From positions 1 through 64,000 of the IMG/VR virus record IMGVR_UViG_3300029220_000234: a stretch of DNA of 64,000 nucleotides; one strand, written 5' to 3'. A model generated the notes under the pieces. That model was not told the origin of the DNA, made no database searches, and saw only the letters and a list, made by a program, of their open reading frames with translations. This document shows positions 5,443-52,250 of the stretch, in pieces. Position numbers and translations under genes: made by a program. Source of the stretch: a virus. Every line of letters starts with the position of its first letter. Within the stretch, counting starts at the first letter, position 1.

Positions 5443-5480
5443 TTTGCTTGTCGGGATATGCGAGCCAGATACAATAGGAG
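5443..5480 (+). promoter_or_regulatory. Phage-type promoter (TTGCTT ... ATGCGAG ... ATACAATA)
   Basis: Matches the window-wide consensus TTGnnn-TGTGCGAA-TAcAATA. Lies upstream of the lipoprotein gene. Confidence 0.5.
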
Positions 5481-5547
5481 TTGTACAACAAATACTACAT
5501 TGAAGTATTTGTGCAAAAACTATCCAAACGAAGGAGAACGAAAGAAC

Positions 5548-5892
5548 ATGAGAAACAAAAACCTGACCGCTGCCGCTGCCATGGCAACCGCCACAGCCCT
5601 GATGCTTGCCGGATGTGCTACTCAGAAGCCTGCCGCTTCCTCGTCCGAAGCAGCTTCTACCGCCCCGGCTGAAAGTTCTGTGGTTGAGGAGACTACGCCG
5701 GAGGAAGCGCCTTCCGAGGTTACTGATGTAGACGAAGCTGCTGCGGAGGACCTGCTGTTGAGCACCGAAACGATGCACTACAGCGCTGATGATGAAGATG
5801 GCGTTGTTACCGTCCATAAGTACGATGAGAACGGCAATGAGGTTTTCATGCGTGAAATCGACAAAGCAAGTGATGTCAACAACCCCGCCTAA
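5548..5892 (+). CDS. Small secreted lipoprotein
   Basis: The RBS AAGGAGAA precedes MRNKNLTAAAAMATATALMLAGC (signal peptide with LAGC lipobox). Acidic S/T/E-rich mature part. The N-terminus in the ORF track is over-extended. Confidence 0.6.
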   Translation: MRNKNLTAAAAMATATALMLAGCATQKPAASSSEAASTAPAESSVVEETTPEEAPSEVTDVDEAAAEDLLLSTETMHYSADDEDGVVTVHKYDENGNEVFMREIDKASDVNNPA

Positions 5893-6192
5893 ACCGGTTC
5901 GCCGGTTATAGACGGGGCTTGCGGGGCAACCTGTAAGCCCAGTTGATTAGCCTAAGCCCATTGCTCCGGCAGTGGGGAAAACTACGTTGTGTACTAATAA
6001 TATAGGCACCTTATCCATGCTCCACAAGTGGTGAGCTCTGCAGGCGTTTCGTTAAACATCTCCGAGGGGAGGAGAAGTGCGAGCGTCATGTCGAAAGGCT
6101 AAAACAGTGCATAACATTGGCGAAGTGGACCACAGGACGCAAGTCCTGACTTATAGTTTTATTACTATTTTACGAATGGAGAAACAAAAATT

Positions 6193-7836
6193 ATGGTATA
6201 TGTGATTGCGATTGTGGCAGCCCTGATTATTCTCTTTGGATTTCTCTGCTACAAGAAAGCTCCGCCCACGGAGGCTATCGTTGTGACCGGCTTTGGTCTG
6301 TCTAAGCCTAAAGTAGTTTGCGGAAAAGGTACATTTGTTCTGCCCGTTCTTCAGCGGGCTGACCGGCTAAATATGCGCCTTCTGAAAATTGACGTCAAAA
6401 CTCCTGAAACAGGTGTTAAGACGAAGAACGGCGTAAGTCTCTGGATTGACTCTGTTGTCACGATTCAAGTCTACAGCGAAAACTCTACCGTTCTGGATGA
6501 AGAAGTGAAGGCATCCGGTCTGAAAGACGCCAAGGCGTACATCATGTCCCGCCAACAGGCAGCCATCTCGAACTTTCTGGGCATGAACGAGCAGGGCATC
6601 AATGAGAAAGTTAATGACGTTCTGCAGGGCAATTTGCGTGAGATTGTCTCTGACATGACCGTCGACCAAATTCTGACGAACCGCAAGCAGATGGCTGTGA
6701 GCGTTATCGAGAATGCTCGCCCCGACCTTGCTAAGATGGGACTTGAGGTCGTGACTTTTAACGTCCAGGATATCAGGGATGCGGTGGATGTTCAGGGCCA
6801 CAACCACGGCGTCATTGAGGCTATCGGCATTGAACAGGAAGAGCTTGTGAAAAAACAGGCTGAAATTGCCCGTGCTCAGGCTGCCCGTGATGTAGCCTGC
6901 GCGAAGGCCGATGCTGAGATGGCTGCAAATGCCAAGGAAGTTGAAGCGCAGACTGCGATTGCAAAACGCAACAATGAATTGCAGCTCGCCAAGGCAAAGC
7001 TGAAAGCTGAAGCTGATAAAGCTGCGGCTGACGCAGATGCTGCCGGTCAGATTCAGATGAATCTCCGCGCCAAAGAAATCAAAGAAGCGGAAGCGGATGC
7101 TGAAATCGCCAAGCAGAAGAAAATGGTAGACCTTGCCGCACAGGAAGCCGAGGTCCAGCAACGCAAACTGGATGCGGAAGTCCGCAAACAGGCAGATGCT
7201 GACCTGTACCGCCGCCAGAAAGAGGCAGAAGCCAAGAAATATGAGGCGGAACGTGCAGCTGAGGCACAGAAGTTCTCCAAGCAGCAGGAAGCAGAAGGCA
7301 TTGAACTTGTCGGTAAGGCAGAAGCTGAAGCGATTCGTCAGAAAGGCTTGGCTGAAGCGGAAGCCATGAAACAGAAAGCAGAGGCATATAAGCAGTATAA
7401 CGATGCGGCTGTGGCTGAAATGCTCATCAAGGTTCTTCCTGACATTGCCAAAAGCGTGGCTCAGCCTTTGTCCAGCATTGATAAGGTTTCTATCATTGGC
7501 GGTGACGCCTCCGGCGTATCCGGCGTTTCCGGGAACGTTCCTATCCTGATGGCTCAAACCATGCAGACGGTGAAAGAAGCGACCGGAATCGACATGGGCG
7601 AAATTGTCCGTGCCAACAGCATCCAGGCAAAGACCGACCGCAACATCAACATCATGAATCAAGGCGAACAGCCTGTGAATAGTGAAAAGGAAGGAGGTGT
7701 CAATGCTATGGAACGCGTAGAAGGCGGCTATCTAATTCATGAGAAGAGTCTCAACGGTGAGGAAGTCACTCATTTTCGACCGGATGTGACCGAAGAAGAG
7801 AAGGCTATCATGAAAGACAAAAAGGCCAAAGATTAA
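6193..7836 (+). CDS. Flotillin-like SPFH/band-7 domain protein
   Basis: An N-terminal TM helix, then an SPFH domain, then a long Ala/Glu/Lys-rich coiled coil (EAEA/AKAEA repeats) typical of FloT/YuaG-type flotillins. 547 aa. Confidence 0.85.
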   Translation: MVYVIAIVAALIILFGFLCYKKAPPTEAIVVTGFGLSKPKVVCGKGTFVLPVLQRADRLNMRLLKIDVKTPETGVKTKNGVSLWIDSVVTIQVYSENSTVLDEEVKASGLKDAKAYIMSRQQAAISNFLGMNEQGINEKVNDVLQGNLREIVSDMTVDQILTNRKQMAVSVIENARPDLAKMGLEVVTFNVQDIRDAVDVQGHNHGVIEAIGIEQEELVKKQAEIARAQAARDVACAKADAEMAANAKEVEAQTAIAKRNNELQLAKAKLKAEADKAAADADAAGQIQMNLRAKEIKEAEADAEIAKQKKMVDLAAQEAEVQQRKLDAEVRKQADADLYRRQKEAEAKKYEAERAAEAQKFSKQQEAEGIELVGKAEAEAIRQKGLAEAEAMKQKAEAYKQYNDAAVAEMLIKVLPDIAKSVAQPLSSIDKVSIIGGDASGVSGVSGNVPILMAQTMQTVKEATGIDMGEIVRANSIQAKTDRNINIMNQGEQPVNSEKEGGVNAMERVEGGYLIHEKSLNGEEVTHFRPDVTEEEKAIMKDKKAKD

Positions 7837-8056
7837 AGACAACGAATAAAAAGAGGGTGACTCGAAAGAGCCATCCTTTTTTCTGTTGTGACGCAAACGA
7901 AAAGTTCATGGTAGCCATCCAATTAGGGTGACTGTCTTTTTTGCATGTTAAGGCTTTGTTGCTGAATCGTGCGAATCGAAGATAATTAGAAGCAAAAGAT
8001 ACTTCGTATCAAGCCCTCTTGATAGCAAATAGAGTAAAACCGGAGAGGTGAAGTTA

Positions 8057-8860
8057 ATGCTCGGCGTGAGTTTGATTATCATAGCAGCGGCTATAGTCTA
8101 CATGGTCGAAACCTATATCAGCACCTATTACACTATCGAATACATGCACGGAACATCGCTGTTCCTTATCCTCCTTGCGAAATATGGCACGCCAGTCCTG
8201 TTCCTGCTGCTCTGCGCCTACATTGCATATCGCAATTTTCTCAAAAAGCAGAAAGCTGCGGCTTCTGCTGCATCTGAACGGCCTACAAGCAAAGAAGAGC
8301 TGTATACCAACAAAATTCAAACGGCAGTAAAGACAAAAAGCGTCTTCTCAGAGCAGGCTGACCAAATGCTGTATCAGGTACGGCGCTTCGGGCAAAAAAT
8401 GGCCGTTGCCTACAGCATGACCCAGGATAGCAAGACATCCGGGGAACAAGCCAAGTGCCTAACGTTATTGGAATCCGCAGAACGTATCTTCTATGACCGA
8501 CTGGATGACGCGATTCGCTCGGCTTCAATGTTTGATGAAACGGAATACAAGGCTTTCTGTCAAGGCTCTATCTCGTTTGGAAACAAAGAAGAAGCGCAGA
8601 AAAAGAAAGAAATCTACAATGGTATCGTAAGTACCGTGGATAAGGTAGTTCATGACAATGAGCGCTTAATCCTCCGATTGGATTCTTTAGCATACGCTCT
8701 GAACCAACGTTCTGCCCAGAATCCGTGGGATACAGAGGTTGTACTCGCAATGTCAAAGCTCGATGCTGTCATTAACAAGACGACGCAGGATATTGAACAG
8801 GATGAAGATATCAGTCGTGAGGCTATGAAACGATATAACAACTTGAAAGGAGAAATTTAA
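8057..8860 (+). CDS. Membrane protein of unknown function (2-3 N-terminal TM helices plus a cytoplasmic helical domain)
   Basis: Start at MLGVSLIIIAAAIVYMV after a GGAGAGG RBS. Hydrophobic N-terminus. Sits in the flotillin/vWA operon. Confidence 0.5.
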   Translation: MLGVSLIIIAAAIVYMVETYISTYYTIEYMHGTSLFLILLAKYGTPVLFLLLCAYIAYRNFLKKQKAAASAASERPTSKEELYTNKIQTAVKTKSVFSEQADQMLYQVRRFGQKMAVAYSMTQDSKTSGEQAKCLTLLESAERIFYDRLDDAIRSASMFDETEYKAFCQGSISFGNKEEAQKKKEIYNGIVSTVDKVVHDNERLILRLDSLAYALNQRSAQNPWDTEVVLAMSKLDAVINKTTQDIEQDEDISREAMKRYNNLKGEI

Positions 8861-8861
8861 C

Positions 8862-10556
8862 GTGACAAAAAAGAACATTTTCCCTGTGGTTGCAACCATT
8901 GCTGTGGTAGGCGTTGTTCTCGGAGTATTTTCGATGACGGTGATGAGGGACTCAAACGTCAGCATTAGTACAATGACGTCCGAGCAGGCATATGCCAACT
9001 TGAGCAGCAAGATGAAGCGCATCGGCGTGCAGGAGGTCAAGGTCAATCCTCAGCAGCTGGATGTCTCTGAATTCCTTGATGCAAAGGATGAACTGCCCGA
9101 CATTGAATCCTCCTACCCATTCGTGGTCGTAGGAAACGGAGATGTGAACATCGAAATCTTTTCCTCTGGCGAGAAAGCAGCAGAGTCCGGCTCAGATTCT
9201 TTCCTGACCGAAATGGCAAAGAAGTTCAACGCCCAGCACAACAAGACTTCCGGAGACAAGACTATGAGTGTCTCCCTGCGCTCCATTCCGTCCGGTACGG
9301 CGGCTGAGTACATCTCGACGGGAAAGTATCAGCCCGAGTGCTATACCCCCTCAAATACGCTCTTTGGCGAGCTGGTGAAGAACGAGGGCGTAGAATTGAC
9401 CGTTGAGGCTGACCGTCTGGTCGGCAATGTGGCGGGTATTCTCGTATCAAAGAAGACAGGGGATATGCTTCGCTCTGAATACGGTGAAGCGTCTGTTTCT
9501 TCCGTTCTGAACGCAACCATCGATGGCAAACTCATGATGGGATACTCGAACCCCTACACAAGTGCTACGGGTCTTAATTTTCTGCTTGAGGCTCTTGCGA
9601 GCAGCGGCAGCGATACGATTGTCGATACGGCTGCTGTTGAGAATTTCCAGAAATTTCAAGCGAACGTCCCTCTCGTATCCTTCACGACCCAGCAGATGGT
9701 CCAGTCGGCAGACAAGGGCATCGTGGACGGCGTTGTCATGGAGTATCAGTCTTATCAGAATGACCCGACCTTACAGCGCAACTACGAGTTCATCCCGTTC
9801 GGTGTACGGCACGATAATCCTCTGTATTCCATCGGGAATGTCTCTGCGGAGAAGAAGGAAGTTATTGCTGCCTTCGTTTCCTTCTGCGCTCAGAACCAGG
9901 CAGAGGCGACCAAGGACGGATTCAATGGTCTTGACGACTATGCTTATACAGGCAAGGCATACGATGGCAACACCATCGCACAGGCTCAGAGTGTCTGGAA
10001 AGAAGAGAAGGACTCAGGCATTCCTATTGTGGCAGAGTTCGTTGTCGATACTTCCGGCTCGATGCGCGGCGAACCCCTGAATGCCCTGAAAACCGCGATG
10101 ATAAACACCATCCAGTATATCAATGACGACAACTATATCGGCATCATTGGCTTTGATTCAGATGTCAGGGAATACCTGCCCATTAACCAGTTCTCTCTGA
10201 CCCAGAAAACTCTGTATAAGGGTGCCGTGAACTCCCTCGATGCGAACGGCAGCACCGCAATGTACAACGGTCTTTGCGTTGCTATGGACCGCATCTACCA
10301 GAAATCTCAGGAACTGGGTGGGAATTGCACGCCCATCATCTTTGTGCTCACGGACGGTGACAACAATACCGGATATGGCTTCTCCGATACGAAGAACATC
10401 ATTGCCGGTATGGATATCCCCATTTACACCATCAGCTACAACTACGCAGCGGATAGTCTTTCGGAGCTCGCTTCCATCAACGAAGCGGCAGCTATCGTCG
10501 GCAACAGCGAGGATATCACCTACAAGCTCCGCAACCTGTTTAACGCAGAGATGTAA
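8862..10556 (+). CDS. Membrane-anchored von Willebrand factor A (vWA) domain protein
   Basis: GTG start after a GAAAGGAGAAA RBS. N-terminal TM helix. C-terminal VVDTSGSMRGEPL...NGSTAMYNGL...FVLTDGDNN is a MIDAS-type vWA domain. Confidence 0.8.
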   Translation: MTKKNIFPVVATIAVVGVVLGVFSMTVMRDSNVSISTMTSEQAYANLSSKMKRIGVQEVKVNPQQLDVSEFLDAKDELPDIESSYPFVVVGNGDVNIEIFSSGEKAAESGSDSFLTEMAKKFNAQHNKTSGDKTMSVSLRSIPSGTAAEYISTGKYQPECYTPSNTLFGELVKNEGVELTVEADRLVGNVAGILVSKKTGDMLRSEYGEASVSSVLNATIDGKLMMGYSNPYTSATGLNFLLEALASSGSDTIVDTAAVENFQKFQANVPLVSFTTQQMVQSADKGIVDGVVMEYQSYQNDPTLQRNYEFIPFGVRHDNPLYSIGNVSAEKKEVIAAFVSFCAQNQAEATKDGFNGLDDYAYTGKAYDGNTIAQAQSVWKEEKDSGIPIVAEFVVDTSGSMRGEPLNALKTAMINTIQYINDDNYIGIIGFDSDVREYLPINQFSLTQKTLYKGAVNSLDANGSTAMYNGLCVAMDRIYQKSQELGGNCTPIIFVLTDGDNNTGYGFSDTKNIIAGMDIPIYTISYNYAADSLSELASINEAAAIVGNSEDITYKLRNLFNAEM

Positions 10557-10675
10557 CTCAAAAGCGCGGTTTTGTCCGCGCAGCTGCTCCAAAAGACAGC
10601 CTCCACGCGGCGAGCAGCGGGCAACGGGAGACAGTCCCGGCAAATTGTCTTTGAGACGGAAGGAAGAAGTGCCCT

Positions 10676-12145: not shown

Positions 12146-12180
12146 CAGTTGCACAGCCGTGCAAATTGCATACAATGGGA
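12146..12180 (+). promoter_or_regulatory. Phage-type promoter (GTTGCAC ... CGTGCAAATT ... CATACAAT)
   Basis: Consensus match. Followed by a roughly 340-nt leader before the 12518 gene. Confidence 0.4.
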
Positions 12181-12517: not shown

Positions 12518-14683
12518 ATGGCAAGAAGGAAAACAAACGACTTGGAAAATCAGATGTCGCTCATGGACATGATGGCATCGAAAAGCCCCGAATATACCGA
12601 AGAAGGCCCGGAAGAACTCTTGGACCCCGGCGAGGACATGGAGGACAGTGAAGGGCAGACGGATAAGCCCTTCAAACTCGTGGCGAACAAGACCACGAAG
12701 GCAAAGGCGAGCATCTCCACGCAGGCGTTGAGTGTTGTGAAGGCGGTATATGCTGATACGGTAGAAACGAATTGGGAAGAGTTGTTTGACGGGTTCGACA
12801 GACTCTATGCTATCACTTTTTCGTCCGGTATCGAGTTCGTGAATAAGGTCATCAACAAGTTCTCGTATGCGGAAGTCGTGTTCGGATGCGAGAAAATCAT
12901 CGCCAACGACATTGCTGCCATCATGTCGGTGCAAATCGACAGCGTGCAGCGGCTCGCTAAGTCTAAGTCGGCAGGGAACCTTGCGAACCGCCTCGATGAC
13001 GGGTCCTTGCAGCTGTATGTATCGCGAGACACGAAATCGCACGAGAAAATCTTTATCTTGGAGAGCGCTGACCATAAGCGTGTCCGAGTCATCACCGGCA
13101 GTGCGAATATGTCGGCATCGGCGTTTTGCGGCATTCAGCGAGAGAATATCGTCTGCTTCGATGACGAGGCGGCATTTTCGCATTACAAGGTTCTGTTCGA
13201 GACCTTCAAGGAGACCTGCTCCGACAATGTCTCCTATAAGGCAGTCGTGAACACCATGAACCAGGAAGATTATCTGAAAGAGAACATCAAAGAAGTGCCC
13301 GTCTTTCAGTCTATTGAAAAGCAGAAGCTTGTCTTTCTGGAACAGGCACAGCCTGAGGATGAGGTCGAATACGAGATAGCTGCCGATGTCAAGAAAATGC
13401 AGGAACTCGTCAAGCCAATCATGCCTAAGATGCCGGTACAGGCGAATCGTATTGTAGTGGCAGCGGAACCGATGCGCGTTTTCGGGAAACGATATACCGA
13501 GGTGCGGCGTGTGGCAGCTGAGGCAGTTAAGCAGCTCCCAAAATTACATATCGACTATGATGCCGGGACCATGACCTTCAACGACGAAAATATCGACCTC
13601 AATCCGAATCTCAGCGAGGTGGCAAAGAACATCGAGAGCATCCAGAAGTTCTTCTCAGGCATGGACTACTTTTACGGCGATGTCGAACAGGCCAAGAAGG
13701 ACTACTTCAAGTACATGACCTGGTATCTGGCTACTCCGTTCATGGCGTATCTGCGGTATTTCGCATCGAGGAACAACTACGATACGAAGCTGTTCCCGAT
13801 GTACGGCGTTATATACGGCGACTCAAACGGCGGCAAGACGACCTTTATAAAATTTCTTGTCAAACTCATGTGCGGTGAGACCGTTAAGATGAACACGACG
13901 GAGGATTTCACAGCCACAAGAATCGACGGCCTCAAACGAGTTTGTGAGGGACTGCCGCTGAACATCGACGACCTCGCCAAGACCCAGTTTCAGAACCATT
14001 CAGAACGGGTAATCAAGAACGATGAATGGGGTATCTCGGACAGGCTCGTGAACTATCCTGCTGTATCTATCACATCGAATAAAATTACCTCGCTGACAAA
14101 AGACCTCTCGAAACGTGCTATCATCTGTCGAATTGGTGCTAAAATCGACAACGAGCGCGGTGCCAAGAACTCGAAGCGTGTGAATGAGAGTATGTCGGAG
14201 CTGACAACCGCGTTCTATGGCGAATATGTCCGCCGAATGCTTGTTTGCATCGATGAGATGACGACGGAAATGCGTGAAAATGCGAATGGCAAGGAATACT
14301 TCCCGGATATCTTCCACGCTTCGTCTAGTGTCATTGCAGATATCTTCGAGGCATGCGGAATCGATTTGCCGGACTATGTGCGTATCCTGTACTATAACGA
14401 CTATATGGGTGATGAGAGCATTGGTCGTGCTGCAATTGAGAAAATCGAACTGGCATGGCAGGCTGACCCGAGCAAGTTCCGGGTCGATAAGAAGCAGAAC
14501 AGGCTCATTTACTCCTATCCGCCGGATGGACCGTGGTACGAACTGAAATACATTGCAGATGAGCTGCCGAACTCCCTCGAAGCAGAGATTTCTGGCGGCA
14601 ACCAGCTTATCATGAACTACGAGCAGGCACAGGAATTGTTCGGCATCAAGTTTCGGCGCTGGCTGGGCATCTTTAACCTCTAA
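12518..14683 (+). CDS. PLD-like (HxK..D..GSxN-type) domain fused to an SF3/P4-D5-type P-loop NTPase
   Basis: N-terminus ...HEKIFILESADHKRVRVITGSANMSASAF resembles a phospholipase-D-family nuclease motif. The C-terminus has the Walker A GDSNGGKTTFIKFL typical of primase/SF3 helicase C-terminal domains. 721 aa. Confidence 0.55.
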   Translation: MARRKTNDLENQMSLMDMMASKSPEYTEEGPEELLDPGEDMEDSEGQTDKPFKLVANKTTKAKASISTQALSVVKAVYADTVETNWEELFDGFDRLYAITFSSGIEFVNKVINKFSYAEVVFGCEKIIANDIAAIMSVQIDSVQRLAKSKSAGNLANRLDDGSLQLYVSRDTKSHEKIFILESADHKRVRVITGSANMSASAFCGIQRENIVCFDDEAAFSHYKVLFETFKETCSDNVSYKAVVNTMNQEDYLKENIKEVPVFQSIEKQKLVFLEQAQPEDEVEYEIAADVKKMQELVKPIMPKMPVQANRIVVAAEPMRVFGKRYTEVRRVAAEAVKQLPKLHIDYDAGTMTFNDENIDLNPNLSEVAKNIESIQKFFSGMDYFYGDVEQAKKDYFKYMTWYLATPFMAYLRYFASRNNYDTKLFPMYGVIYGDSNGGKTTFIKFLVKLMCGETVKMNTTEDFTATRIDGLKRVCEGLPLNIDDLAKTQFQNHSERVIKNDEWGISDRLVNYPAVSITSNKITSLTKDLSKRAIICRIGAKIDNERGAKNSKRVNESMSELTTAFYGEYVRRMLVCIDEMTTEMRENANGKEYFPDIFHASSSVIADIFEACGIDLPDYVRILYYNDYMGDESIGRAAIEKIELAWQADPSKFRVDKKQNRLIYSYPPDGPWYELKYIADELPNSLEAEISGGNQLIMNYEQAQELFGIKFRRWLGIFNL

Positions 14684-14732: not shown

Positions 14733-14765
14733 AGTTGCCCATTTGTGCGAATTGCAGACAATCAG
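14733..14765 (+). promoter_or_regulatory. Phage-type promoter (TTGCCC ... TGTGCGAATTGC ... GACAAT)
   Basis: Exact copy of the recurring TGTGCGAATTGCAGACAAT core. Confidence 0.55.
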
Positions 14766-14845: not shown

Positions 14846-15313
14846 ATGAAAGACTACGGCAACGGCTATTCCATTGAGGAGCTTGCCGCAAAATACAGGT
14901 TGAGCGTCCGTACATGCTATCGAGCGTTAGACGACGCGAAACAGGAGGCCAGAATTCAGTTGGCGCAGGTAGAGGATGCTAGAAAGGCCGAAATTCTTGC
15001 GGCATACAAGAACAGTGTCCCTCTCAAGGAAATGATTGCGAAATTTAACGTGGCAGAAGGATATTGCAGCATGGTTGCCAACGATGCGGGCCTGACTGAA
15101 AACCGTAGAAATGAGCGCATCAAAATTCGGCAAAAACCCCGCAATGAGAATATCTTTCGAGAATACGAGAGTGGCGTGCCGGTGCAGAAACTATCCGAAA
15201 AATATCAGCTCTCGGTTCCTGGTATTTACAAGGTTATCCAGCGAGTGAGAAGGCAAAAGGAGGCGATGAGTCTTGCAATGGATTGTGAAGCAAACCAAAT
15301 CGAAAGGATATGA
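14846..15313 (+). CDS. DNA-binding protein with three tandem HTH repeats (NUMOD1 / sigma-region-4-like)
   Basis: Three copies of a roughly 50-aa unit (YSIEELAAKYRLSVRTCYRAL, VPLKEMIAKFNVAEGYCSMV, VPVQKLSEKYQLSVPGIYKVI). They resemble the HTH repeats in the C-terminal half of the GIY-YIG enzyme at 26171. The start is uncertain because the in-frame AAGGAG is far upstream. Confidence 0.5.
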   Translation: MKDYGNGYSIEELAAKYRLSVRTCYRALDDAKQEARIQLAQVEDARKAEILAAYKNSVPLKEMIAKFNVAEGYCSMVANDAGLTENRRNERIKIRQKPRNENIFREYESGVPVQKLSEKYQLSVPGIYKVIQRVRRQKEAMSLAMDCEANQIERI

Positions 15314-15911
15314 GTTCACCTTCGATATCGTGAAAGGCAAGGCCGTTATCGGGCAGGCACACTATATCCCGAAATTGCTACGGCAGGGTTATGGCATCCG
15401 GCTGAATGATTCCAAGTTCCTGCTGCAATACATGCCAGCTGCTGACGCAAGGGCGTACATGCGCGGCATCAACACAAAAGATATTCTGAGACACCCTTTT
15501 GCTATCCGTGAGAACAACTGCACGGTAGGCGAGATTTCCGTCATCCATACAAAAACCGGATTCCTCCAAGGATACAATTCTATCGCCATGCAGCTGTATG
15601 GCGAGGAATACCAGAGCTACAAAATTGGTTTTGGAAAAGAAGGAGTATGCTGCCCTGTATTTCTTGGCGGACAGCAAATCGCCCAAATCAATAAGAGCGC
15701 GGTGGTCAAGGATAATCTGGATGAATACCTGATTTACGCAGTGAATGAAAAGGCACTGATGCCGTCCGTCATGTTCGCCATTTATATTGATGGAATATAC
15801 TACGCAAACCGAGGCATGTATGTGGATGACGCAACGACTATCAACTGCGAATACAGCTTGAACGAGGAAGTCCTGTCCCACTACGACCCGAATTTTGTCA
15901 AAGGACTATGA
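15273..15911 (+). CDS. Hypothetical protein
   Basis: TTG start 7 nt after the AAAGGAGG RBS. 212 aa. Confidence 0.4.
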   Translation: MQWIVKQTKSKGYEFTFDIVKGKAVIGQAHYIPKLLRQGYGIRLNDSKFLLQYMPAADARAYMRGINTKDILRHPFAIRENNCTVGEISVIHTKTGFLQGYNSIAMQLYGEEYQSYKIGFGKEGVCCPVFLGGQQIAQINKSAVVKDNLDEYLIYAVNEKALMPSVMFAIYIDGIYYANRGMYVDDATTINCEYSLNEEVLSHYDPNFVKGL

Positions 15912-15942: not shown

Positions 15943-15975
15943 TGTTGCGAAACTGTGCGAATTGCAGACAATTAA
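15943..15975 (+). promoter_or_regulatory. Phage-type promoter (TTGCGA ... TGTGCGAATTGC ... GACAAT)
   Basis: Consensus match directly upstream of the 16012 gene. Confidence 0.55.
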
Positions 15976-16011: not shown

Positions 16012-16611
16012 ATGAGCTATGAACCCATTATCACACCGGGCAGGAATTTCTTTCTTGTCTCGACGGAGTACAAAGAGAGCAGCTCTGCCTGGTGCCGCAA
16101 GCAAATTAGAGCGACACTGAGGACCTGTCAGGGACGAGTCATCATCATTGATGCAACGGGCGAGTACGCGGACTTGGCGCTTGAACATGACAGATTGATT
16201 CGAGAGAAAATCCCGTCCATCATTTATCGGTATAAGCTGGTGGACGGGAAACCGTATATTGCTCATGTCATTGAAGTTGATACGGAAGCAAATGAAGCAC
16301 CGCACCTGATTGTATACGATATCAGCCGGACCATAATCACCAGCTGGAAGGTCGGCGTGGAGGCAATTGATAAAATCCTACAATCCTACGCCGTGATGCA
16401 GGACAGTGAAATCGCGTGGCTGTATGTTCCGCTGGACTTATATACCAATGTCAAGCCCGAAAGCGAATCCTGGAACATTTTGGAACGAACTATCAAGGGT
16501 AATGAAGGCAAGCTCATGACAGTACTGACGACTCGCAAATTCACCATTGGGATGGTCCAGCGCTGTTTGCATATGGCAAAAATCAAAAATAATTTGGAGG
16601 ATAACAAATGA
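16012..16611 (+). CDS. Hypothetical protein
   Basis: RBS GAGGATAAACA-ATG. 199 aa. The stop overlaps the next start (ATGA). Confidence 0.5.
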   Translation: MSYEPIITPGRNFFLVSTEYKESSSAWCRKQIRATLRTCQGRVIIIDATGEYADLALEHDRLIREKIPSIIYRYKLVDGKPYIAHVIEVDTEANEAPHLIVYDISRTIITSWKVGVEAIDKILQSYAVMQDSEIAWLYVPLDLYTNVKPESESWNILERTIKGNEGKLMTVLTTRKFTIGMVQRCLHMAKIKNNLEDNK

Positions 16612-17501: not shown

Positions 17502-17620
17502 AGGCAGAGTACCCCATCTATAGCCGCAAGGCTTAGGTGGGGGTGAATGCCGCTTTTAAGAGTTGACTCTGGTTCATTATTACTTGCTGCAATGTGCGAT
17601 TTGACAATAATTATATGTAG

Positions 17621-19156: not shown

Positions 19157-19190
19157 TCTTGCAAAAACGTGCGATACGCATACAATAAAT
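19157..19190 (+). promoter_or_regulatory. Phage-type promoter (TTGCAA ... GTGCGATACGCA ... TACAATAA)
   Basis: Consensus match upstream of the 19226 gene. Confidence 0.5.
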
Positions 19191-19889: not shown

Positions 19890-19990
19890 TATTGCTAATC
19901 TGTGCGAATTGCGTACAATAGCAAATATAAAGTAGAAGTATATCGAATCGCTGCCCCGCATGAATTGCTTGTGCGGGGCTTTTTGTTTGC
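19890..19990 (+). promoter_or_regulatory. Phage-type promoter followed by a terminator-like hairpin (leader attenuator)
   Basis: TTGCTA ... TGTGCGAATTGC ... GTACAATA, then about 30 nt, then GCCCCGCATGAATTGCTTGTGCGGGGC plus TTTTTG, then the RBS. Confidence 0.5.
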
Positions 19991-33488: not shown

Positions 33489-33504
33489 AAACGGAGGAAA
33501 TTAC

Positions 33505-37413: not shown

Positions 37414-40140
37414 ATGGCTATGACACTGAACGACTTGTCAAGCGAACAGCAGAAGTTCGTACATTTGGCACTGTCGGGCAAGAACGTATTGTGTGACGCC
37501 TGCATTGGCAGCGGAAAAACATCTACCATCAATGTGCTCTGTGATGCGTACCCGCCAGAACGGCGTATTTTGTACTTGACCTATAACCGACTGCTCAAAC
37601 TGGATGCCAAAGACAAAATCAAGAATGGCAATGTCCTGGTTCAGAACTATCACGGATTTGCAAGCCTGCTGCTGAACAAGAAAGGAATCCGGAATTGTGG
37701 GCAGGGCGAGCAGCTTGCCATGGTACTAGAAAAGAAGATTCCGATTCCACCGATTGATACTCTTATCATTGACGAATATCAGGATATCAATGACGAGATT
37801 GCGGAACTGCTCAAATATATCCGCTCTCAGAACCCGGGCCTTCAAATCGTTGCTGTGGGCGATATGAAGCAAAAAATCTACGATGATACGGCACTGGATG
37901 TCTGGGAGTTCATGCAGGATTTCCTCGGCCGCCATGAACAGGTTGTTTTCACAAAATGTTTCCGTATTTCCCATGACTTGGCGGAACGGCTCGGCAATAT
38001 CTGGGGCAAGACCATCAACGGCGTAAATGGTTCCTGCATTGTGGAGCAGATGTCGGTCGATGAGGTGACGGAGTTCCTGAACAAGCAAAACCCGAAAGAT
38101 GTTTTGTGCCTGGGCGCTCGAATCGGGGCTATGACGAAGGTTCTCAATGACCTGGAAAATCGCCCCGGAAACCTTTACGACAAGCATCATGTCTATGCAA
38201 GTATCGCGGACAATGACGGAGACAAGGCGGTAGCACCTTCCTCAGATGTCGGCATCTTCACGACTTTTGACGGCAGCAAAGGTATGGAGCGACCTATCTG
38301 TGTCGTGTTCGATTTCACGGAAGAATACTGGTCGTCCCGCACAAACAAGCCGATGTCGCGATACGAGATTCTTCGAAATCTGTTTTGTGTTGCAGCAAGC
38401 CGAGGAAAACAGCGGATTATCTTCGTAAACTATGACCATCCGTTAAGCGATAAATCCCTGATGACTCCAACTGGGATGAATTGCGTGTTCCGGCATCCGT
38501 TTTCGTTCTCCGAGATGTTCGACCACAAATTCATCGAAGATGTGGATGCCTGCTATAAGCTGCTGGAAGTCACACCGATTGAGCACAACGACAATACGAC
38601 CATCGATGTGCAGGCAGCGGATGCCATGATTGACTTGTCTCCCTGCATCAGCATCTATATGCAGGCAGGGTTCTTCAACTCCTACGACATTGATGACGCA
38701 CTTGCATATTATATGGACCTGCATGATGATATGCAGTATTTGAAAATCAAGAAGGGGGCAACGGTCGAGGATAAGGTTCTGCTGCTCACGGCGCTTGAAA
38801 CGAATCAGTGCCGGTATGTAAAACAGGTCAAGCCTCCTTTTGTGAACGCAAAAGCCAAAATGTCGCTCAGTATGCGGCTTGGCACCGTGTTCACTCCCGA
38901 TGAGTATGTTCAGGCACGCGGAGATATCGACATCCATACTAATGACCATAAAGTAATTTATACTTCGGGCCTTGCGGATGTCGTAAAGAACAACACCGTC
39001 TACTGCATCAAGTTCATCAGCAGTCTGGCACACAAGCATTTTCTGCAGTGTGCGTGTTCTATGATTGCGCTGGGTCTTCCATATGGCGTTGTCTGGAACG
39101 TCAAAAGCAACCTGATGTACAGCGTAAAAATCAAGGATAAGGACGCTCTGATTGACGCAATCCTCAAGTGCATCACGAAACGAGCTTACAACGGCGCGGA
39201 TTATTACACCTGCCGAAAAGGCTTTGTACAGGATACGGCATCGATTATCGACCGCTGGACTGACGACGGATATGCGGAAGAACCCATCGCCATCACTTCC
39301 GGCGACGGTATCGCCATCATCAAGCAGGGAACTCGCTATTTTGTGATGGACGGGGCACGCCGAAACACTCTGAACGATAATTTAGGGCTTGGTTTTGCCG
39401 ATGTAAAAGATGCCTGTCTTGCATATGCAAAAAGCTGTGAACTACAGAAAGCCGTGGACCGTGATTCTCCTTATTCCGAAGTTGAGTTTTGGCTCGACCA
39501 GAACAAGGCATTTGAGGAATACATGACGCAGGCGAGCCATGAAATCGAACAGCACGAAGAAGGACCGTATGCCAAATACAAGTCTTTCGCTGCGCCTGTC
39601 GTCCGAAAGATGCTGGCGGAAAAGGGACTGACCATCACGTTCCCGGAAAAAGCCCTCATCAAGGTTTGGAAGATGCGCCGCGCCGAAGATGCCATGTATC
39701 AGAAAATCGAGGAAGCAAAGAAGCAGAACAATTCTAATGTACCGCTTGATGAAGCGTTCTTTGATTCTGAACTGGTGGATTCCGTCGAGGGAAATACCGA
39801 AAGCGCTAAGGCAAAAACCAAACCCAAAAAGGAATCGGCACTGCCGTTTTCCAAGTACGGTGCAGATGAAAAGAAGAGTTACCGTGTCGTGAAGAGTCCT
39901 GAACTTTCAAAGCCCAATCAGCCGCGCTATGTTGTGGTCGAGACGGCTACCGATAAGGTCCTGGACAACGCAAACGGATACGGATACCTCTCCTATCAGG
40001 CTGCCTGGAAAGGGTATTCGTACAAGAGCAAGCATCATCTGGATGGGGCAAAGAAGCCTATGAGCAAGAGCGCAAAAGAACGGGCTAAGAAAAAGGCAGC
40101 TTTCTTCTCGACCGATTCGGAACAGCTCAGTTTCGGCTGA
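37414..40140 (+). CDS. UvrD/PcrA-like SF1 DNA helicase with a roughly 350-aa C-terminal extension
   Basis: Walker A CIGSGKTST, DEYQD box, and TFDGSKGMERPICVV (motif V/VI-like). The ORF track extends further upstream in frame. The start is taken at the RBS-supported MAMTLND. Confidence 0.8.
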   Translation: MAMTLNDLSSEQQKFVHLALSGKNVLCDACIGSGKTSTINVLCDAYPPERRILYLTYNRLLKLDAKDKIKNGNVLVQNYHGFASLLLNKKGIRNCGQGEQLAMVLEKKIPIPPIDTLIIDEYQDINDEIAELLKYIRSQNPGLQIVAVGDMKQKIYDDTALDVWEFMQDFLGRHEQVVFTKCFRISHDLAERLGNIWGKTINGVNGSCIVEQMSVDEVTEFLNKQNPKDVLCLGARIGAMTKVLNDLENRPGNLYDKHHVYASIADNDGDKAVAPSSDVGIFTTFDGSKGMERPICVVFDFTEEYWSSRTNKPMSRYEILRNLFCVAASRGKQRIIFVNYDHPLSDKSLMTPTGMNCVFRHPFSFSEMFDHKFIEDVDACYKLLEVTPIEHNDNTTIDVQAADAMIDLSPCISIYMQAGFFNSYDIDDALAYYMDLHDDMQYLKIKKGATVEDKVLLLTALETNQCRYVKQVKPPFVNAKAKMSLSMRLGTVFTPDEYVQARGDIDIHTNDHKVIYTSGLADVVKNNTVYCIKFISSLAHKHFLQCACSMIALGLPYGVVWNVKSNLMYSVKIKDKDALIDAILKCITKRAYNGADYYTCRKGFVQDTASIIDRWTDDGYAEEPIAITSGDGIAIIKQGTRYFVMDGARRNTLNDNLGLGFADVKDACLAYAKSCELQKAVDRDSPYSEVEFWLDQNKAFEEYMTQASHEIEQHEEGPYAKYKSFAAPVVRKMLAEKGLTITFPEKALIKVWKMRRAEDAMYQKIEEAKKQNNSNVPLDEAFFDSELVDSVEGNTESAKAKTKPKKESALPFSKYGADEKKSYRVVKSPELSKPNQPRYVVVETATDKVLDNANGYGYLSYQAAWKGYSYKSKHHLDGAKKPMSKSAKERAKKKAAFFSTDSEQLSFG

Positions 40141-44194: not shown

Positions 44195-44340
44195 TTACTC
44201 GACAAGCTGTGCGAACTGACTACAATAAAAAATGTACGATAGATAACAAACATCGAAAAAGGCATTCTGCCTTTCGTACAATTCACAATTCTGCAGACAT
44301 AAGGCAGACTCACCGTCTTGGTGGGCCTGCCTTTTTTGTT
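44195..44340 (+). promoter_or_regulatory. Promoter-leader-terminator module A
   Basis: GTGCGAA(44209), TACAATAA(44221), GTACGATAGATA(44234), TCGTACAATTCACAATTCTGC(44274), hairpin AGGCAGACTCACCGTCTTGGTGGGCCTGCCT plus TTTTTTG, then the RBS. Confidence 0.6.
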
Positions 44341-44370: not shown

Positions 44371-45111
44371 ATGTTCAAAATTCACAATGACAAAGTCTAT
44401 TTCGTCGCCGAGACCCCCGATATCAACAAAGTTATCGAAATCTTCCTACCCAAGGATGGCCATGGCACCATTATGAATTCACACGAAATTCGTGTGGACC
44501 TGTGCCGTGCCGTCATTCACATGGAGAAGAAGGGTATCCGTGTCTTGAAGGTCCGCAACATTGAGGATACCAACAAGGCAAACATCGACGTCTGGCACAT
44601 GCCGGAATATCAGGAGGCTGCAGAGTCTCCCACGAGCGATGTGGTCGATGCCTGCATCGAGTCCAACTTTGATTCCGGCGCAACGTTCAACCTGCCCTGC
44701 AAAGCAAACCGCAAGACTCGCGAAGTCTTCGACATTGAGTGCGGCGCTTGCCCTAATGACGATGACACGTTCAGCTATGCAGAGGTTAAAGTTAATGGAT
44801 GGCACTATCCGGTCAACAACATCACCGACATTATGGAGGAAAACGATGTTGACAGTGCGTTGGATGAGCTCTACCGCATCCAGCAGAAAGGCGAGTATTG
44901 GGAAGCATACGAGGGCAAATCGCTCACGGATGCCATCCACGAATTCCGCTGGGCTATCCTGAAGGATGCCATTCAGAAGCGCGGACATGAGGCTGTTGCT
45001 GATTTTGTCGGAACCGACATTTCCAGTGACGCTTATGACCGCGTGATGGACGAAACCGAAACCCAGATGCCGAACGAAGAATTCGAGCGCTTCTGGGAAA
45101 AGTACATCTAA
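44371..45111 (+). CDS. Hypothetical protein
   Basis: RBS AAAAAGGAGTATAACGCA-ATG. The ORF-track N-terminus is translated module A. Confidence 0.5.
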   Translation: MFKIHNDKVYFVAETPDINKVIEIFLPKDGHGTIMNSHEIRVDLCRAVIHMEKKGIRVLKVRNIEDTNKANIDVWHMPEYQEAAESPTSDVVDACIESNFDSGATFNLPCKANRKTREVFDIECGACPNDDDTFSYAEVKVNGWHYPVNNITDIMEENDVDSALDELYRIQQKGEYWEAYEGKSLTDAIHEFRWAILKDAIQKRGHEAVADFVGTDISSDAYDRVMDETETQMPNEEFERFWEKYI

Positions 45112-49499: not shown

Positions 49500-49533
49500 A
49501 CGTTGTGCATCTGTGCGAATTGCATATAATACA
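49500..49533 (+). promoter_or_regulatory. Phage-type promoter driving tnpB (GTTGTGCATCTGTGCGAATTGCATATAAT)
   Basis: Near-identical to the helicase promoter at 37305. Confidence 0.55.
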
Positions 49534-49648
49534 AAATATAGAACGAAAGGCATCAAAAAATATCGTTGGTCGGGCAAAATCGGACCAAAAGGCTAGGGCA
49601 GCTCGGAAATACAGAAGGAGTCAAATCTAATGGAAAGGAGGCTTCACG

Positions 49649-50980
49649 GTGAAAATAACTTCAAGCTATGCCGTAGAAATAAAAAAGCAGCGGATGTTCG
49701 ATGATACTATAAAATTGTATCGTGAAGCCGTTTCTTTCTTGATTGATTGCTTTAATAAAGAATGGCTGGCAATTCAATCAGTTGATAAGGCGAAAGCCAA
49801 ATTCAACTTTGCTGAAAAGCTGGTACATACAACAAAATACAATGTAGCAAAGTATGATTTTGATGCCAAATTCTATAAGTTTCCCAGCTACTTGCGCAGA
49901 GCTGCTATTCAAGCGGCATTGGGCTCGGTAAGCAGTTACCGCAGCAACTACAAGAACTGGGAAGCTAACGGTAAGGTTGGCAATGAGCCGAAGCTACAAT
50001 GCGATAGGTTTTGTTTCCCGACTTTCTATAAAACCGTTATGTTTACTGAAAGCAATGAACCTAACCAGTGCTACTTAAAGCTGTATAGCAAAAATGACTG
50101 GGTTTGGGTTCCTGTTGCAATGCGTGCTACCGATGTGAAGTACATCACGAAATACTGGTCGCATTGCCAAAAGAGTGCTCCCACTCTCGAAAAGAAGTAC
50201 GGAAAGTATTTCCTACGCTTCGCTTTCGAAGAAGAGGTGAAGCTCTCTGATACTGAAATTCAGGATAGGCGTATCTGCGCTGTTGACCTTGGCCTCAATA
50301 CCGACGCTGTGTGCAGCATCATGACTGCCGATGGAACTGTCATTGCAAGAAAGTTTATCAATTTTGCAAGTGAAAAAGACCATCTGTATCATGTGCTAAA
50401 CCGTATTAAGCGTAAACAAAGGGAACGCGGTCCCAAGAGCACTGCCGCTATGTGGCGATACGCCAAAGCCTTGAATGATGATATAGCGAAAAAGGTGGCT
50501 GCCGCCATTACCGAGTTTGCAGTGCTTTACTCTGTCGATGTAATTGTTTTTGAACATTTATCATTTACAGGCAAAAAGCACGGCGGCAGTAAAGCACAAA
50601 AGTTGTCGATGTGGAAGCGTAATTCTATACAGGATTATATAGAACATAAGGCGCATCGCTGCGGCATCCGTATTTCGCGTATCTGCGCTTGGGGGACAAG
50701 CAAACTTGCCTTTGATGGCAGCGGTTCTCTCAAGCGTGATGAAACCAACCACGCCATTGCAGCTTTTGCAAGTGGCAAACGATACAACTGTGACCTTAGT
50801 GCGAGCTACAACATTGGCGCTCGCTACTTTGTCAGAGAGTTGCTAAAACCCTTGCCAGTGATGGTGAGGTCTCAGCTTTCGGCTAAAGTTCCGGAAGCTG
50901 AGCGTAGAATCCAAGTTACACTTGCCACGCTTAAAGTCTTGTACCCTGAGTATCAAAAACTTACGGCACAAGCAGCGTAA
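49649..50980 (+). CDS. tnpB: TnpB-like RNA-guided nuclease (IS200/IS605 OrfB family) lacking the C-terminal Zn finger
   Basis: GTG start after GGAAAGGAGG. RuvC-I RICAVDLGLNTDAVCS. RuvC-II VDVIVFEHLSF. WGTSKL. RuvC-III-like NCDLSASYNIGARYF (D..S..NI). There is no CxxC...CxxC. Confidence 0.8.
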   Translation: MKITSSYAVEIKKQRMFDDTIKLYREAVSFLIDCFNKEWLAIQSVDKAKAKFNFAEKLVHTTKYNVAKYDFDAKFYKFPSYLRRAAIQAALGSVSSYRSNYKNWEANGKVGNEPKLQCDRFCFPTFYKTVMFTESNEPNQCYLKLYSKNDWVWVPVAMRATDVKYITKYWSHCQKSAPTLEKKYGKYFLRFAFEEEVKLSDTEIQDRRICAVDLGLNTDAVCSIMTADGTVIARKFINFASEKDHLYHVLNRIKRKQRERGPKSTAAMWRYAKALNDDIAKKVAAAITEFAVLYSVDVIVFEHLSFTGKKHGGSKAQKLSMWKRNSIQDYIEHKAHRCGIRISRICAWGTSKLAFDGSGSLKRDETNHAIAAFASGKRYNCDLSASYNIGARYFVRELLKPLPVMVRSQLSAKVPEAERRIQVTLATLKVLYPEYQKLTAQAA

Positions 50981-51140: not shown

Positions 51141-51147
51141 CAAATAG

Positions 51148-51282
51148 GCTTGCTCAAACGTGCGATTTCACTAAAATTGTAATTGTACGATAGATAACAG
51201 CCTTTTGGCCTAAATGCGTACAATTCATATTCTGCAAAGAATCAGCAGACTCACCATCTCGGTGGGCCTGCTTTTTGTTTTG
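51148..51282 (+). promoter_or_regulatory. Promoter-leader-terminator module B
   Basis: CTTGCT...GTGCGAT...GTACGATAGATA(51185)...GCGTACAATTCATATTCTGC...hairpin AGCAGACTCACCATCTCGGTGGGCCTGCT plus TTTTTG. It is followed by a 6-codon mini-ORF (MKIIPN) before the real gene. Confidence 0.6.
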
Positions 51283-51359
51283 CAAGCAATAAAAGGAGTA
51301 ATGAAAATTATACCGAACTGAACAAAATCTAAAATCACACAACAAAAGGAGAAGTAATT

Positions 51360-52202
51360 ATGTATTGCATTCAGTATGACGAAATCTGCAAAATGCACGG
51401 CTTTGAGATTGAACATGATGCTCATGGTGACGGAGTAACCCTCAAATACCCAGCAGGTCATACCCCGAAAAAATCCTTTCGTCTTTCTCAGAATCATCTT
51501 TCTGAGGAAGTATCGGCTATGGCTGAAAAGTACCGCAGTGACAGCTTTGCCATGTTTATATTTAGAGCTGCTGCGGCGGCGGGAAACACCATCAGTCTTT
51601 CCGAGACTATGGAGGAAAACAAAAAAGTTTCCGCAGCTCTCTCTGATTTAGCGGACGACCTGAAACAAGCAGAGCTGGAAGCCAAGACTTGGGTTTGCAC
51701 CGACCCTGATACATGCCAGTGGCGGCGTCAGGTTGGCGGAACTCGATACGAGCTGTACGACATTTTCGAAGCTCCGAATGGCACTTATTTTGCTGTTCAC
51801 GGTGAAGTTGACCCGACCGAGCTTGACCCAGATGACTACGACCAACTGCTTGAGGCTTATTCCGGCTTGCTGGACTCTGCCAACTGTGAGAGCGAACGCT
51901 GGGCACTCATTGCGGAAGCACAGTTTGAGACCGAAGAACTTTCTATGGAGCGTGAACGCTTTTCGACTTTCGAAGGAGCTGAAAGAGCGATTCGGAAAAA
52001 GGTTGGTGCAGACGTTTCAGATAAGAATGCTGTGACCGAAACTCGTCTCGATGCGATTCGCAAGCTCGATAAGCTGCGTCTTGCCATCTTTTTGAACGAT
52101 GTTCGCAGAGGCGTGAAAGACTTTCCTTCCGATAACATGAGCTGGTGTGACTGGCTTAGCAAACCGGATGACGGACATTTGCTGGATGTGAAGCCTGTTT
52201 AA
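51360..52202 (+). CDS. Hypothetical acidic protein
   Basis: RBS AAAGGAGAAGTAATT-ATG. 280 aa. Confidence 0.5.
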   Translation: MYCIQYDEICKMHGFEIEHDAHGDGVTLKYPAGHTPKKSFRLSQNHLSEEVSAMAEKYRSDSFAMFIFRAAAAAGNTISLSETMEENKKVSAALSDLADDLKQAELEAKTWVCTDPDTCQWRRQVGGTRYELYDIFEAPNGTYFAVHGEVDPTELDPDDYDQLLEAYSGLLDSANCESERWALIAEAQFETEELSMERERFSTFEGAERAIRKKVGADVSDKNAVTETRLDAIRKLDKLRLAIFLNDVRRGVKDFPSDNMSWCDWLSKPDDGHLLDVKPV

Positions 52203-52214
52203 TTGTGTAATTTG

Positions 52215-52250
52215 CTGTTTGTCGCAAAATATGGTATAATAGAAATGAGG
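52215..52250 (+). promoter_or_regulatory. Extended -10 promoter (TATGGTATAAT)
   Basis: TGnTATAAT immediately upstream of the zeta-like kinase RBS GAGGTGATACC-ATG. A different promoter class from the phage consensus. Confidence 0.45.

Follow-up and report, generated by a model that had tools for sequence, protein, structure and literature searches.

Predicted sigma-A-type promoters with a spacer element locked to the -35 region head accessory gene cassettes of a likely gut conjugative megaplasmid

We analysed a 64,000-nt stretch of DNA, positions 1 to 64,000 of the IMG/VR record IMGVR_UViG_3300029220_000234, hereafter called the window. A promoter-like motif recurs in front of its cassettes, with a conserved sequence block lying between the -35 and -10 elements. 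An original prediction made from the letters of this DNA had described both the motif and the place of the block inside the spacer, and on both counts it was right: every coordinate listed there carries a copy, and the listed sites, once aligned on the block, stack without any gap. It had also given the distances on the two sides of the block as variable ('N4-6' and 'N7-9'), which is wrong, as the register is invariant (N7 and N6). The layout is TTG, 7 nt, GTGCGA, 6 nt and TAnAAT, and the spacer between the -35 and -10 elements is always 16 bp. We refer to sites predicted from this sequence motif as class I promoters and give their -35 to -10 spans in the window as coordinates. With the -10 hexamer counted as -12 to -7, the 7-bp block GTGCGAA occupies -24 to -18; it begins 7 nt past the TTG and is non-palindromic.

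Using the composite TTG-N7-GTGCGA-N7-AnAAT with at most one mismatch, we found 24 matches in the window against 0.16 expected, 23 of them on the plus strand, and a maximum of 1 in 100 dinucleotide-preserving shuffles. A position-weight-matrix scan, which the original prediction had proposed, was run on the window and its relatives; it returned 25 sites in the window, where shuffled sequence gave 0.18. When one mismatch was allowed, the bare 9-mer TGTGCGAAT was not enriched in the window (22 matches versus 21.3 expected), and a generic sigma-70 consensus scan of the window was non-discriminating (27 sites versus 27.2 expected). The enriched entity is the composite in a fixed register, not the bare 9-mer. 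On a working gene map of the window, built by codon scoring and Pfam, all 25 matrix sites are intergenic, within the non-coding 15% of the sequence, and of the 39 gaps between genes that measure 40 bp or more, 22 contain a class I site. Every site in the window faces a downstream gene, with a predicted 5' untranslated region of 32 to ~500 nt.

At the left end of the series, two class I promoters form a divergent pair. The minus-strand member at 5343-5370 (block TTGCGAA) precedes a leader at 5254-5336 and a gene at 4863-5216, and its plus-strand partner at 5448-5475 (block ATGCGAG) precedes a degenerate leader and a gene at 5555-5892. The other sites all lie on the plus strand. Those at 7959-7986, 15945-15972 and 19159-19186 head genes at 8048-8860, 16012-16611 and 19226-19834, respectively. 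The promoter at 12149-12176 (block GTGCAAA) is followed by a 334-nt leader and a PLD-nuclease-like gene (12518-14683), the one at 14735-14762 by a gene for a Mor-like protein with three helix-turn-helix (HTH) repeats (14846-15313), the one at 17584-17611 by a TnpB-fragment gene (17729-18175), and the one at 19892-19919 by a leader with a terminator hairpin and a ResIII helicase gene (20261-22456). A tandem pair at 25818-25845 (block GTGCAAA, -10 TATTAT) and 26034-26061 heads a GIY-YIG/HTH gene at 26153-27361. Here, between 25750 and 26150, the promoter-plus-leader unit is itself duplicated in tandem, and 11-bp TTTGCCAnnG repeats before each copy run into the -35 element.

Further to the right, the promoter at 31923-31950 (block TTGCGAG) heads a gene at 31997-32317, and the one at 32377-32404 a variant leader with a terminator and a gene at 32648-32947. 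At 33339-33366, a promoter with a type-A leader (33374-~33464) is immediately followed by another, as the T-run of the leader terminator enters the next site at 33455-33482; this second site has TTT rather than TTG at the -35, keeps the block and the -10, and lies upstream of an IscB gene (RRXRR and HNH; 33811-35073), an arrangement lacking the TTG that is conserved in the relatives L035, L046 and L065. The best-scoring promoter, at 37308-37335, is followed by a leader with a terminator and a UvrD-like helicase gene (~37432-40140). The site at 44199-44226 (-35 TCG) has a type-A leader at 44234-44337 and a gene at 44389-45111, and that at 49503-49530 heads a TnpB-like gene (49649-50980), which was apparently inserted into a leader that stays intact in L022, L033, L045 and L054. 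Type-A leaders likewise follow the promoters at 51150-51177 (leader 51185-51276, gene 51360-52202), 52856-52883 (52891-52989, 53030-53578), 55247-55274 (block GTACGAA; 55282-55379, 55395-56132), 57580-57607 (57615-57718, a YopX gene at 57740-58450), 60285-60312 (block ATGCGAG; 60320-60417, 60448-61521) and 61701-61728 (61736-61837, 61866-62945). One weak and doubtful class I-like site lies at 57210-57237 (-10 TAGGAT). The roughly 20 copies originally reported are real, but those at 7959, 17584, 32377, 55247 and 60285 and the weak one at 57210 had been missed. Together with their class I promoters, the IscB gene, the TnpB-like gene and the TnpB fragment span 33455-35073, 49503-50980 and 17584-18175.

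The window had been taken for phage DNA, a view that our comparisons do not bear out. No match was obtained when the window was compared with phages and plasmids by megablast, or one leader with plasmids by blastn. Exact-protein look-ups found genes of the window also on human-gut contigs of 58-244 kb. In the relative L018, a TraC/VirB4-type conjugation ATPase adjoins genes identical to those at the left end of the window, and the two sequences part at the divergent promoter pair. Plasmids of Subdoligranulum variabile (247 kb) and Vescimonas fastidiosa (142 kb) encode the closest database relatives of this ATPase, which share 38% identity with it. A VirB4-type ATPase of type IV secretion systems is also present in 8 IMG/VR contigs, and among the products of family loci are methylases, topoisomerase III and a surface-type protein of 2649 aa or more. 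Neither capsid nor terminase was among the annotated proteins, no dedicated search having been run for either. These features agree with the Hodor conjugative megaplasmids known from the human gut, TnpB-rich elements of 211-389 kb with a GC content of 47.1% (group G1) or 44.6% (G2) that were initially deposited as huge phages and turn up mostly in viral databases (PMC12934698, a 2026 preprint); the text of the preprint mentions neither promoters nor sigma factors. The GC content of the window is ~47%, and in IMG/VR its relatives, gut contigs, reach 389,222 bp. Many family contigs with conjugation genes (3300045988_18xxxx and others; L022-L209, L212-L219) are stored as viral genomes in IMG/VR, which agrees with the preprint's remark on viral databases. 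The window therefore likely belongs to the Hodor-type conjugative megaplasmids and not to a phage, as far as gene content and sequence relatives can tell.

The motif recurs throughout this plasmid family. Correctly spaced patterns (the composite being TTGNNNNNNNGTGCGAANNNNNNANAAT) each match more than 115 IMG/VR stretches, nearly all from gut metagenomes; a register control with the distance between TTG and block one base longer (N8) matched only 14 unrelated single sites in viral contigs, none of them in the window. The matrix found 450 sites in 1.5 Mb of family loci, with a strand coherence inside loci of 0.997. These were de-duplicated in two ways, to 285 unique sites for the logo and 356 for leaders and downstream genes. 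As the 1.5 Mb of loci had been picked by the block, sites were additionally counted by TTG and TAnAAT alone. The block-independent pattern TTG-N19-TAnAAT, i.e. a 16-bp spacer, occurred 503 times against 75 in shuffled sequence, and TGCGA is present in 379 of these sites, always at the same offset. For the 17-bp spacer the count was 142 against 60, with TGCGA in 10, and spacers of 13-15 and 18 bp gave no excess over shuffles. Defined the other way, by the block and -10 alone, 184 unique sites were obtained, 176 of which (96%) have a TTG in register. The GTGCGA hexamer occurs at background frequency elsewhere than in promoter context.

The logo of the 285 unique sites reads cTTGC(a/c)(a/c)A..(T/C)GTGCGAA(T/C)(T/C)GCATAnAAT, followed by an A-rich discriminator. 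Six positions of the block are 98-100% conserved among these sites, which were chosen by a matrix containing the block, and the flanking columns 6-7, 9-10 and 26 are near random. The fourth -35 base is C, not A, in ~75% of sites, and A2, A5 and T6 of the -10 TAnAAT stand at 94-99%. The predicted start lies ~8 nt past the -10; position -1 is T in 77% of sites, and +1 is a purine in 93%, often as GTA. At least 99 gene families lie directly downstream of class I promoters (339 sites). The density in accessory arrays is ~0.3-0.4 class I sites per kb, and by extrapolation from 25 in 64 kb each plasmid would probably carry something like a hundred copies. For the block 8-mer, a search of the literature returned unrelated primer matches only.

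The hexamers themselves are ordinary. The original prediction had held that the signature was not a sigma-A one, yet the -35 TTG (96%) and the -10 TAnAAT are classical for sigma-A and only the block is extra. Class I promoters have a TTGACA-like -35, a TATAAT-like -10 and a spacer within 17 +/- 1 bp, as expected of sigma-70/sigma-A promoters. They lack the canonical extended -10 TG at -15/-14 of Gram-positive promoters, as the bases are T(-16) G(-15) C(-14), so that two bases instead of one lie between the G and the -10 hexamer. This TGC at -16 to -14 is the third in a series, as TTGC of the -35 and GTGC of the block form a direct repeat, TTGC-N6-GTGC(GAA), one helical turn apart. No hairpin spans the class I motif, which is of the plain duplex -35/-10 type, unlike Frpo-type leading-region promoters, in which a long imperfect hairpin restores the -35 and -10 in single-stranded DNA. 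Nor does it resemble MerR-type spacer regulation, as the spacer is 16 bp rather than 19-20 bp and the block has no palindrome. Overlapping sigma-54, sigma-H or sigma-E/K promoters were rejected on inspection of spacing and base preferences against their consensus sequences.

The register is rigid at the level of single promoters. Among unique strict sites, 141 have the N7/N6 arrangement, and every other combination of N6-8 with N5-7 has 0 or 1 site, except for N7/N7 with 5. These five are hybrids with a class II -10 (see below) and a 17-bp spacer, in all of which the distance from TTG to block is still 7 nt and the additional base pair has gone to the -10 side. That the block keeps to the -35 side argues against a reader anchored on the -10 side (clamp, zipper), and the invariant unit TTGC-N6-GTGC(GAA) speaks for a composite site that is read together with sigma region 4 or beside it. 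Hybrid promoters in which the -35 and block are joined to a TGTGGTATAAT or ATGGTATAAT -10 were seen in L145, L151, L181, L138 and L206; they precede TnpB-like genes (L145, L181), an IscB gene (L206) and an unannotated 267-aa gene (L138).

A second promoter class coexists with the first on these plasmids. No class I site was found in 145 kb made up of the 20-kb neighbourhoods of VirB4 on 8 plasmids, where ~45-55 would be expected at the density of accessory arrays. What is found instead in the VirB4 regions, in a G2-type locus and in numerous further intergenic gaps is the canonical Gram-positive extended -10 promoter, also known as the '-16 region' promoter (TRTGnTATAAT), which we call class II. 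Its -10 forms were counted as TGTGGTATAAT (33) and TATGGTATAAT (18) in the motif loci and as the TGGTATAAT type (8) in the VirB4 loci. In the window, the plus-strand promoter at 52212-52240 (TTGCTG, 17-bp spacer, TGGTATAAT extended -10, no block) heads a zeta-like kinase gene at 52258-52815, and a class II promoter on the minus strand at 1630-1658 serves a Y-family polymerase gene. At least two classes had been predicted from the kinase promoter, and this holds in the window as well as family-wide. An unusual host specificity, which had been offered as one explanation of the motif, is disfavoured by the canonical block-free extended -10 promoters: the same plasmids carry ordinary promoters, which makes an odd host sigma-A improbable as the cause of the block. 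The third -10 base also differs, in that TACAAT, TAGAAT and TAAAAT are far commoner than TATAAT in class I and class II has TATAAT, and a perfect sigma-A -10 consensus seems to be avoided in class I.

About 45% of class I sites, among the 356 unique ones, run into a conserved leader that begins at the predicted start site. From its 5' end GUACGAUAGAUA, the leader continues with a stem P1 (GUACG...CGUAC) around a variable hairpin, a single-stranded AUUCAYAAUU and a strong intrinsic terminator. Its folding z-scores range from -2.4 to -5.7, and an alignment of 27 diverse copies shows compensatory changes in 8 terminator pairs, with P1 invariant. More than 150 unique leader copies were found in relatives, and no Rfam family matches the leader. 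The window holds at least ten leaders and not eight as first counted. The class I promoters at 19892, 25818/26034 and 37308 have different leaders, likewise with terminator hairpins. We infer that many units need read-through of the leader terminator, which would constitute a second layer of control, and the leader may be an attenuator or an antitermination target.

Several known systems resemble class I in part. On the Gram-positive conjugative plasmids p576 and pLS20, conserved sigma-A promoters with repressor operators stand ahead of many variable establishment operons, which hold anti-restriction genes and methylases among others, and the repeated sequence defines the regulon (PMC8708921). 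Like class I, their EGeRS2 sequence joins a conserved strong sigma-A promoter to a regulatory site and is repeated before several small variable operons. The same arrangement, one promoter-plus-site unit before several variable operons, is seen here with 25 units in the window and at least 99 downstream families in relatives. In EGeRS2, however, operators of a ribbon-helix-helix repressor (Reg) flank the promoter on one or both sides, whereas class I has a single 7-mer inside the spacer in a rigid register; and EGeRS2 is present in 3-5 copies per plasmid, against 25 in 64 kb. No Reg homolog came to light here, no search having been aimed at one. The p576/pLS20 establishment regulon is the closest published precedent. 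In the middle promoters of phage T4 (MotA box and AsiA), an extra box at a fixed distance from a sigma-70-type -10 also marks a temporal gene class, but the MotA box replaces the -35, while class I keeps the -35 TTG in 96% of sites. The lambda cII sites, TTGC-N6-TTGC, are direct repeats one turn apart that straddle a poor -35 and are bound by an HTH protein on the face opposite polymerase. Class I shares with them direct tetranucleotide repeats one helical turn apart in a sigma-70 promoter; it differs in that its first repeat coincides with the -35 TTG and its second is placed ~4 bp nearer the -10, and no cII-like protein was seen. The Z-element, placed at -22 to -18, belongs to the spacer segment at -24 to -18 contacted by the beta' zipper, with a loose consensus of AACCT/AACAT and effects of less than 2-fold (PMC3173786). 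The block shares its position, and the Z-element acts with, or partly instead of, the -35; the block sequence GTGCGAA, however, is unrelated, nearly invariant, and tracks the -35 and not the -10 when the spacer lengthens.

Class I is best described, on the support gathered here, as a set of plasmid-wide sigma-A-type promoters with a spacer element locked to the -35, heading accessory cassettes and excluded from the conjugation core. As to how they work, we tentatively favour, with somewhat less than even confidence, host sigma-A polymerase together with a putative plasmid-encoded factor that reads the block. Host sigma-A RNA polymerase would initiate at class I sites, and a conserved plasmid-encoded DNA-binding factor would read the block jointly with the -35 repeat, so that the entire accessory set could be shut or opened at once. 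The presence of canonical TGTGGTATAAT promoters on the same plasmids indicates that the host polymerase does not need the block. Expression might be transient after transfer, as in the establishment regulons of p576 and pLS20, and in about half of the units the leader with its intrinsic terminator could act as a second checkpoint, by attenuation or antitermination.

Candidates for the putative factor were sought on the plasmids. A dedicated phage sigma or activator had been predicted; a trans-acting factor is still our best guess, but neither a phage origin nor a sigma is supported. When RpoD regions 2-4 and the two sigmas of the Vescimonas plasmid served as phmmer queries, no sigma-like open reading frame was detected in ~1.7 Mb of partial family DNA, the search being an insensitive one; a search for NusG/RfaH gave no match. 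The triple-HTH protein at 14846-15313 (plus strand), a Mor-like protein with three Mor/HTH_23-type repeats, had been named as the specificity factor, a role that finds no support: its homologs are limited to 27 close ones, which either are fragments or share 86% identity or more, with truncated or split forms on contigs of 226-228 kb, and is one of many paralogs. Proteins of this repeat family carry 3-6 Mor/HTH_23 repeats, with paralogs of 161, 172, 186, 322 and 410 aa that often occur as adjacent pairs (L122, L045, L202 and others), and the product of 26153-27361 has Mor/HTH_23-type repeats fused to a GIY-YIG nuclease. The class of tandem-HTH proteins stays plausible as a reader, because tandem repeats would suit a direct-repeat site.

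Another protein of the window has a structural tie to RNA polymerase. The 628-aa XRE-family protein encoded at 23694-25580 on the minus strand carries a copy of the beta' clamp helices at residues ~108-176. A search with the single sequence gave 75 PDB matches, all to beta' or cyanobacterial gamma (best E = 2.9e-5), and the family profile gave 73, all to beta' (E = 3e-8), over E. coli residues 262-330. The AlphaFold model (mean predicted local distance difference test score 85) has a helical hairpin at residues ~108-176. Foldseek returned 116 matches at E ≤ 1e-3, and the 50 listed are all beta' or cyanobacterial gamma in the PDB. In the C-terminal half no significant structural match was found, the best being NTF2-like at E = 0.056. 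Sigma region 2 and NusG/RfaH both dock on the clamp helices of beta'. Equivalents of E. coli N294, E295, A302, N309 and R278, which we take to be sigma-binding residues along with R275 and R293, are kept in the alignment; those of R275 and R293 are not. The positions matching N294, E295, N309 and R278 are near-invariant across the family. The protein may bind host sigma-A or a NusG-type factor.

The genomic setting of the XRE gene is equally particular. The family is restricted to these plasmids, and the gene is the only minus-strand one within the plus-strand arrays of the window, lying antiparallel to class I promoters, with no other gene on its strand, in 13 of 13 loci; the antiparallel order also holds in G2-type plasmids. 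Its own promoter at 25634-25669 (minus strand; TGCTATTATAAT) is not class I and has a form related to class II. This promoter is flanked by four TGTCAT/ATGACA sites (25600, 25620, 25683 and 25703), the sole such cluster in the window. In a lineage at 40% identity, TGTATC/GATACA replace TGTCAT/ATGACA and the block is unchanged. The XRE HTH most likely reads the TGTCAT/ATGACA sites at its own promoter, and regulator and operator appear to have co-evolved. The XRE protein is therefore probably not the reader of the block, since these sites co-diverge with it while the block stays. Any link of the protein to class I promoters is speculative. In the boldest version, a long shot in our estimation, it would dock on free sigma-A and, alone or with a multi-HTH partner, form a core-less 'pseudo-holoenzyme' on the three-part promoters (-35, block at the clamp-contact position and -10), silencing or bookmarking the accessory genes, probably ~100, until a new cell is reached; a single protein complex would then, by its geometry, account for the rigid register.

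A number of observations weigh against a plasmid-encoded reader. None of the candidates examined (sigma search, triple-HTH protein, XRE protein) is tied to the block, which as a single, non-palindromic 7-mer is short for a classical dimeric regulator. The block is also invariant between lineages whose XRE regulator and operator co-diverged (TGTCAT versus TGTATC), which fits a very conserved reader such as RNA polymerase, and its position coincides with the beta' zipper contact in the spacer (PMC3173786). Weak blocks pair with -35 hexamers nearer to TTGACA (odds ratio 3.3, p = 2e-4), weak evidence because the sites are related, and one promoter type, seen in 4 plasmids or more, retains block and -10 but no TTG. 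The trade-off between weak block and -35, together with the TTG-less promoter, hints that the block aids polymerase binding, unlike a repressor site.

The block could instead be an intrinsic element, read by the host polymerase itself as a strong, sequence-specific version of the Z-element that raises promoter strength or offsets the 16-bp spacer with no dedicated factor. The shared -24 to -18 region (PMC3173786), the rigid register, the constancy of the block where a true repressor/operator pair diverged, the better -35 hexamers beside weak blocks and the conserved promoter lacking TTG are all in its favour. We nevertheless consider it unlikely. Known Z-elements are loose (AACCT-like) and have effects of less than 2-fold (PMC3173786), while six positions of the block are 98-100% conserved in block-selected sites; in the five 17-bp variants the block follows the -35 and not the -10 side, where clamp and zipper lie; block-free canonical promoters are used on the same plasmids, including the whole conjugation region; and class I sites number 0 in 85 kb of Subdoligranulum and Vescimonas plasmids.

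Less probable still is a plasmid-encoded sigma, or a sigma-A-like paralog with an extra DNA-reading module, that recognises all three parts and directs core polymerase to the accessory genes. A single rigid register for three elements and their class-restricted use are what such a factor would produce, and distantly related Oscillospiraceae conjugative plasmids, including that of Vescimonas, do encode sigma-70-family and extracytoplasmic function sigmas near their transfer genes. The TTG and TAnAAT of class I, however, are housekeeping sigma-A hexamers, from which alternative sigmas normally differ; the phmmer search, insensitive as it was, returned no sigma-like reading frame in the ~1.7 Mb of partial family DNA, and sigma goes unmentioned in the text of the Hodor preprint (PMC12934698).

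The shared sequence could also be a legacy of copying, with promoter-leader cassettes spread by duplication and acting as homology patches for gene shuffling, and the block having no role in initiation. The same promoter-leader units do stand before many unrelated genes in mosaic arrays, the pair at 25818/26034 is a tandem duplication, and the window and L018, with identical genes, diverge at a divergent promoter pair. Promoter-stem-loop cassettes of T4-type phages offer a parallel. Yet block-adjacent columns are near random while the block is 98-100% conserved in the block-selected sample of 285 sites, the block is present in 379 of the ~428 excess block-independent sites, which indicates selection on the block and not recent copying, and promoters lacking a leader still keep it, so that we regard this explanation as very improbable. 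The least probable explanation is that the block is a methylation site of a plasmid orphan methyltransferase and that promoters fire only when unmethylated or hemimethylated, just after transfer or replication, which would yield transient expression without a repressor and could draw on the orphan EcoRI-family adenine methyltransferase gene at 27334-28395 (Pfam E = 9e-105), on N6-methylases in relatives and on the GAATT within the class I consensus GCGAATTG, but GAATT is found in a minority of sites only, the invariant part is GTGCGA, and outside promoters this hexamer stays at background frequency.

Phages and plasmids time the use of their genes through promoter classes of their own. Class I marks the accessory cargo, probably for establishment or anti-defence, of very common and barely studied giant gut plasmids, and these accessory genes appear to be under a common control, apart from the rest of the plasmid. 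The motif provides a sequence handle by which the class I regulon can be listed in thousands of metagenomes. A near-invariant 7-bp element in a sigma-A spacer, locked to the -35, is unusual; the block would be either the operator of a new global regulator or a contact between polymerase and spacer far more specific than any described. The leader-terminator RNA and an XRE regulator with a copy of the clamp helices suggest that host transcription may be manipulated in ways not yet described.

Two further RNA elements were noticed in the window. A HEARO RNA (IscB omega-RNA type; 91 bits, above the Rfam gathering score) lies on the plus strand at 5875-6135, with no adjacent IscB gene; a flotillin/SPFH gene follows it, and a similar sequence is present in the G2-type locus L220 (1891-2153). 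An HDV-like ribozyme (Rfam HDV-F-prausnitzii, 60 bits) is located at 10583-10652 on the plus strand, just past a VWA gene at 8862-10556, and in L220 a sequence similar to it also follows a VWA gene (15639-15760).

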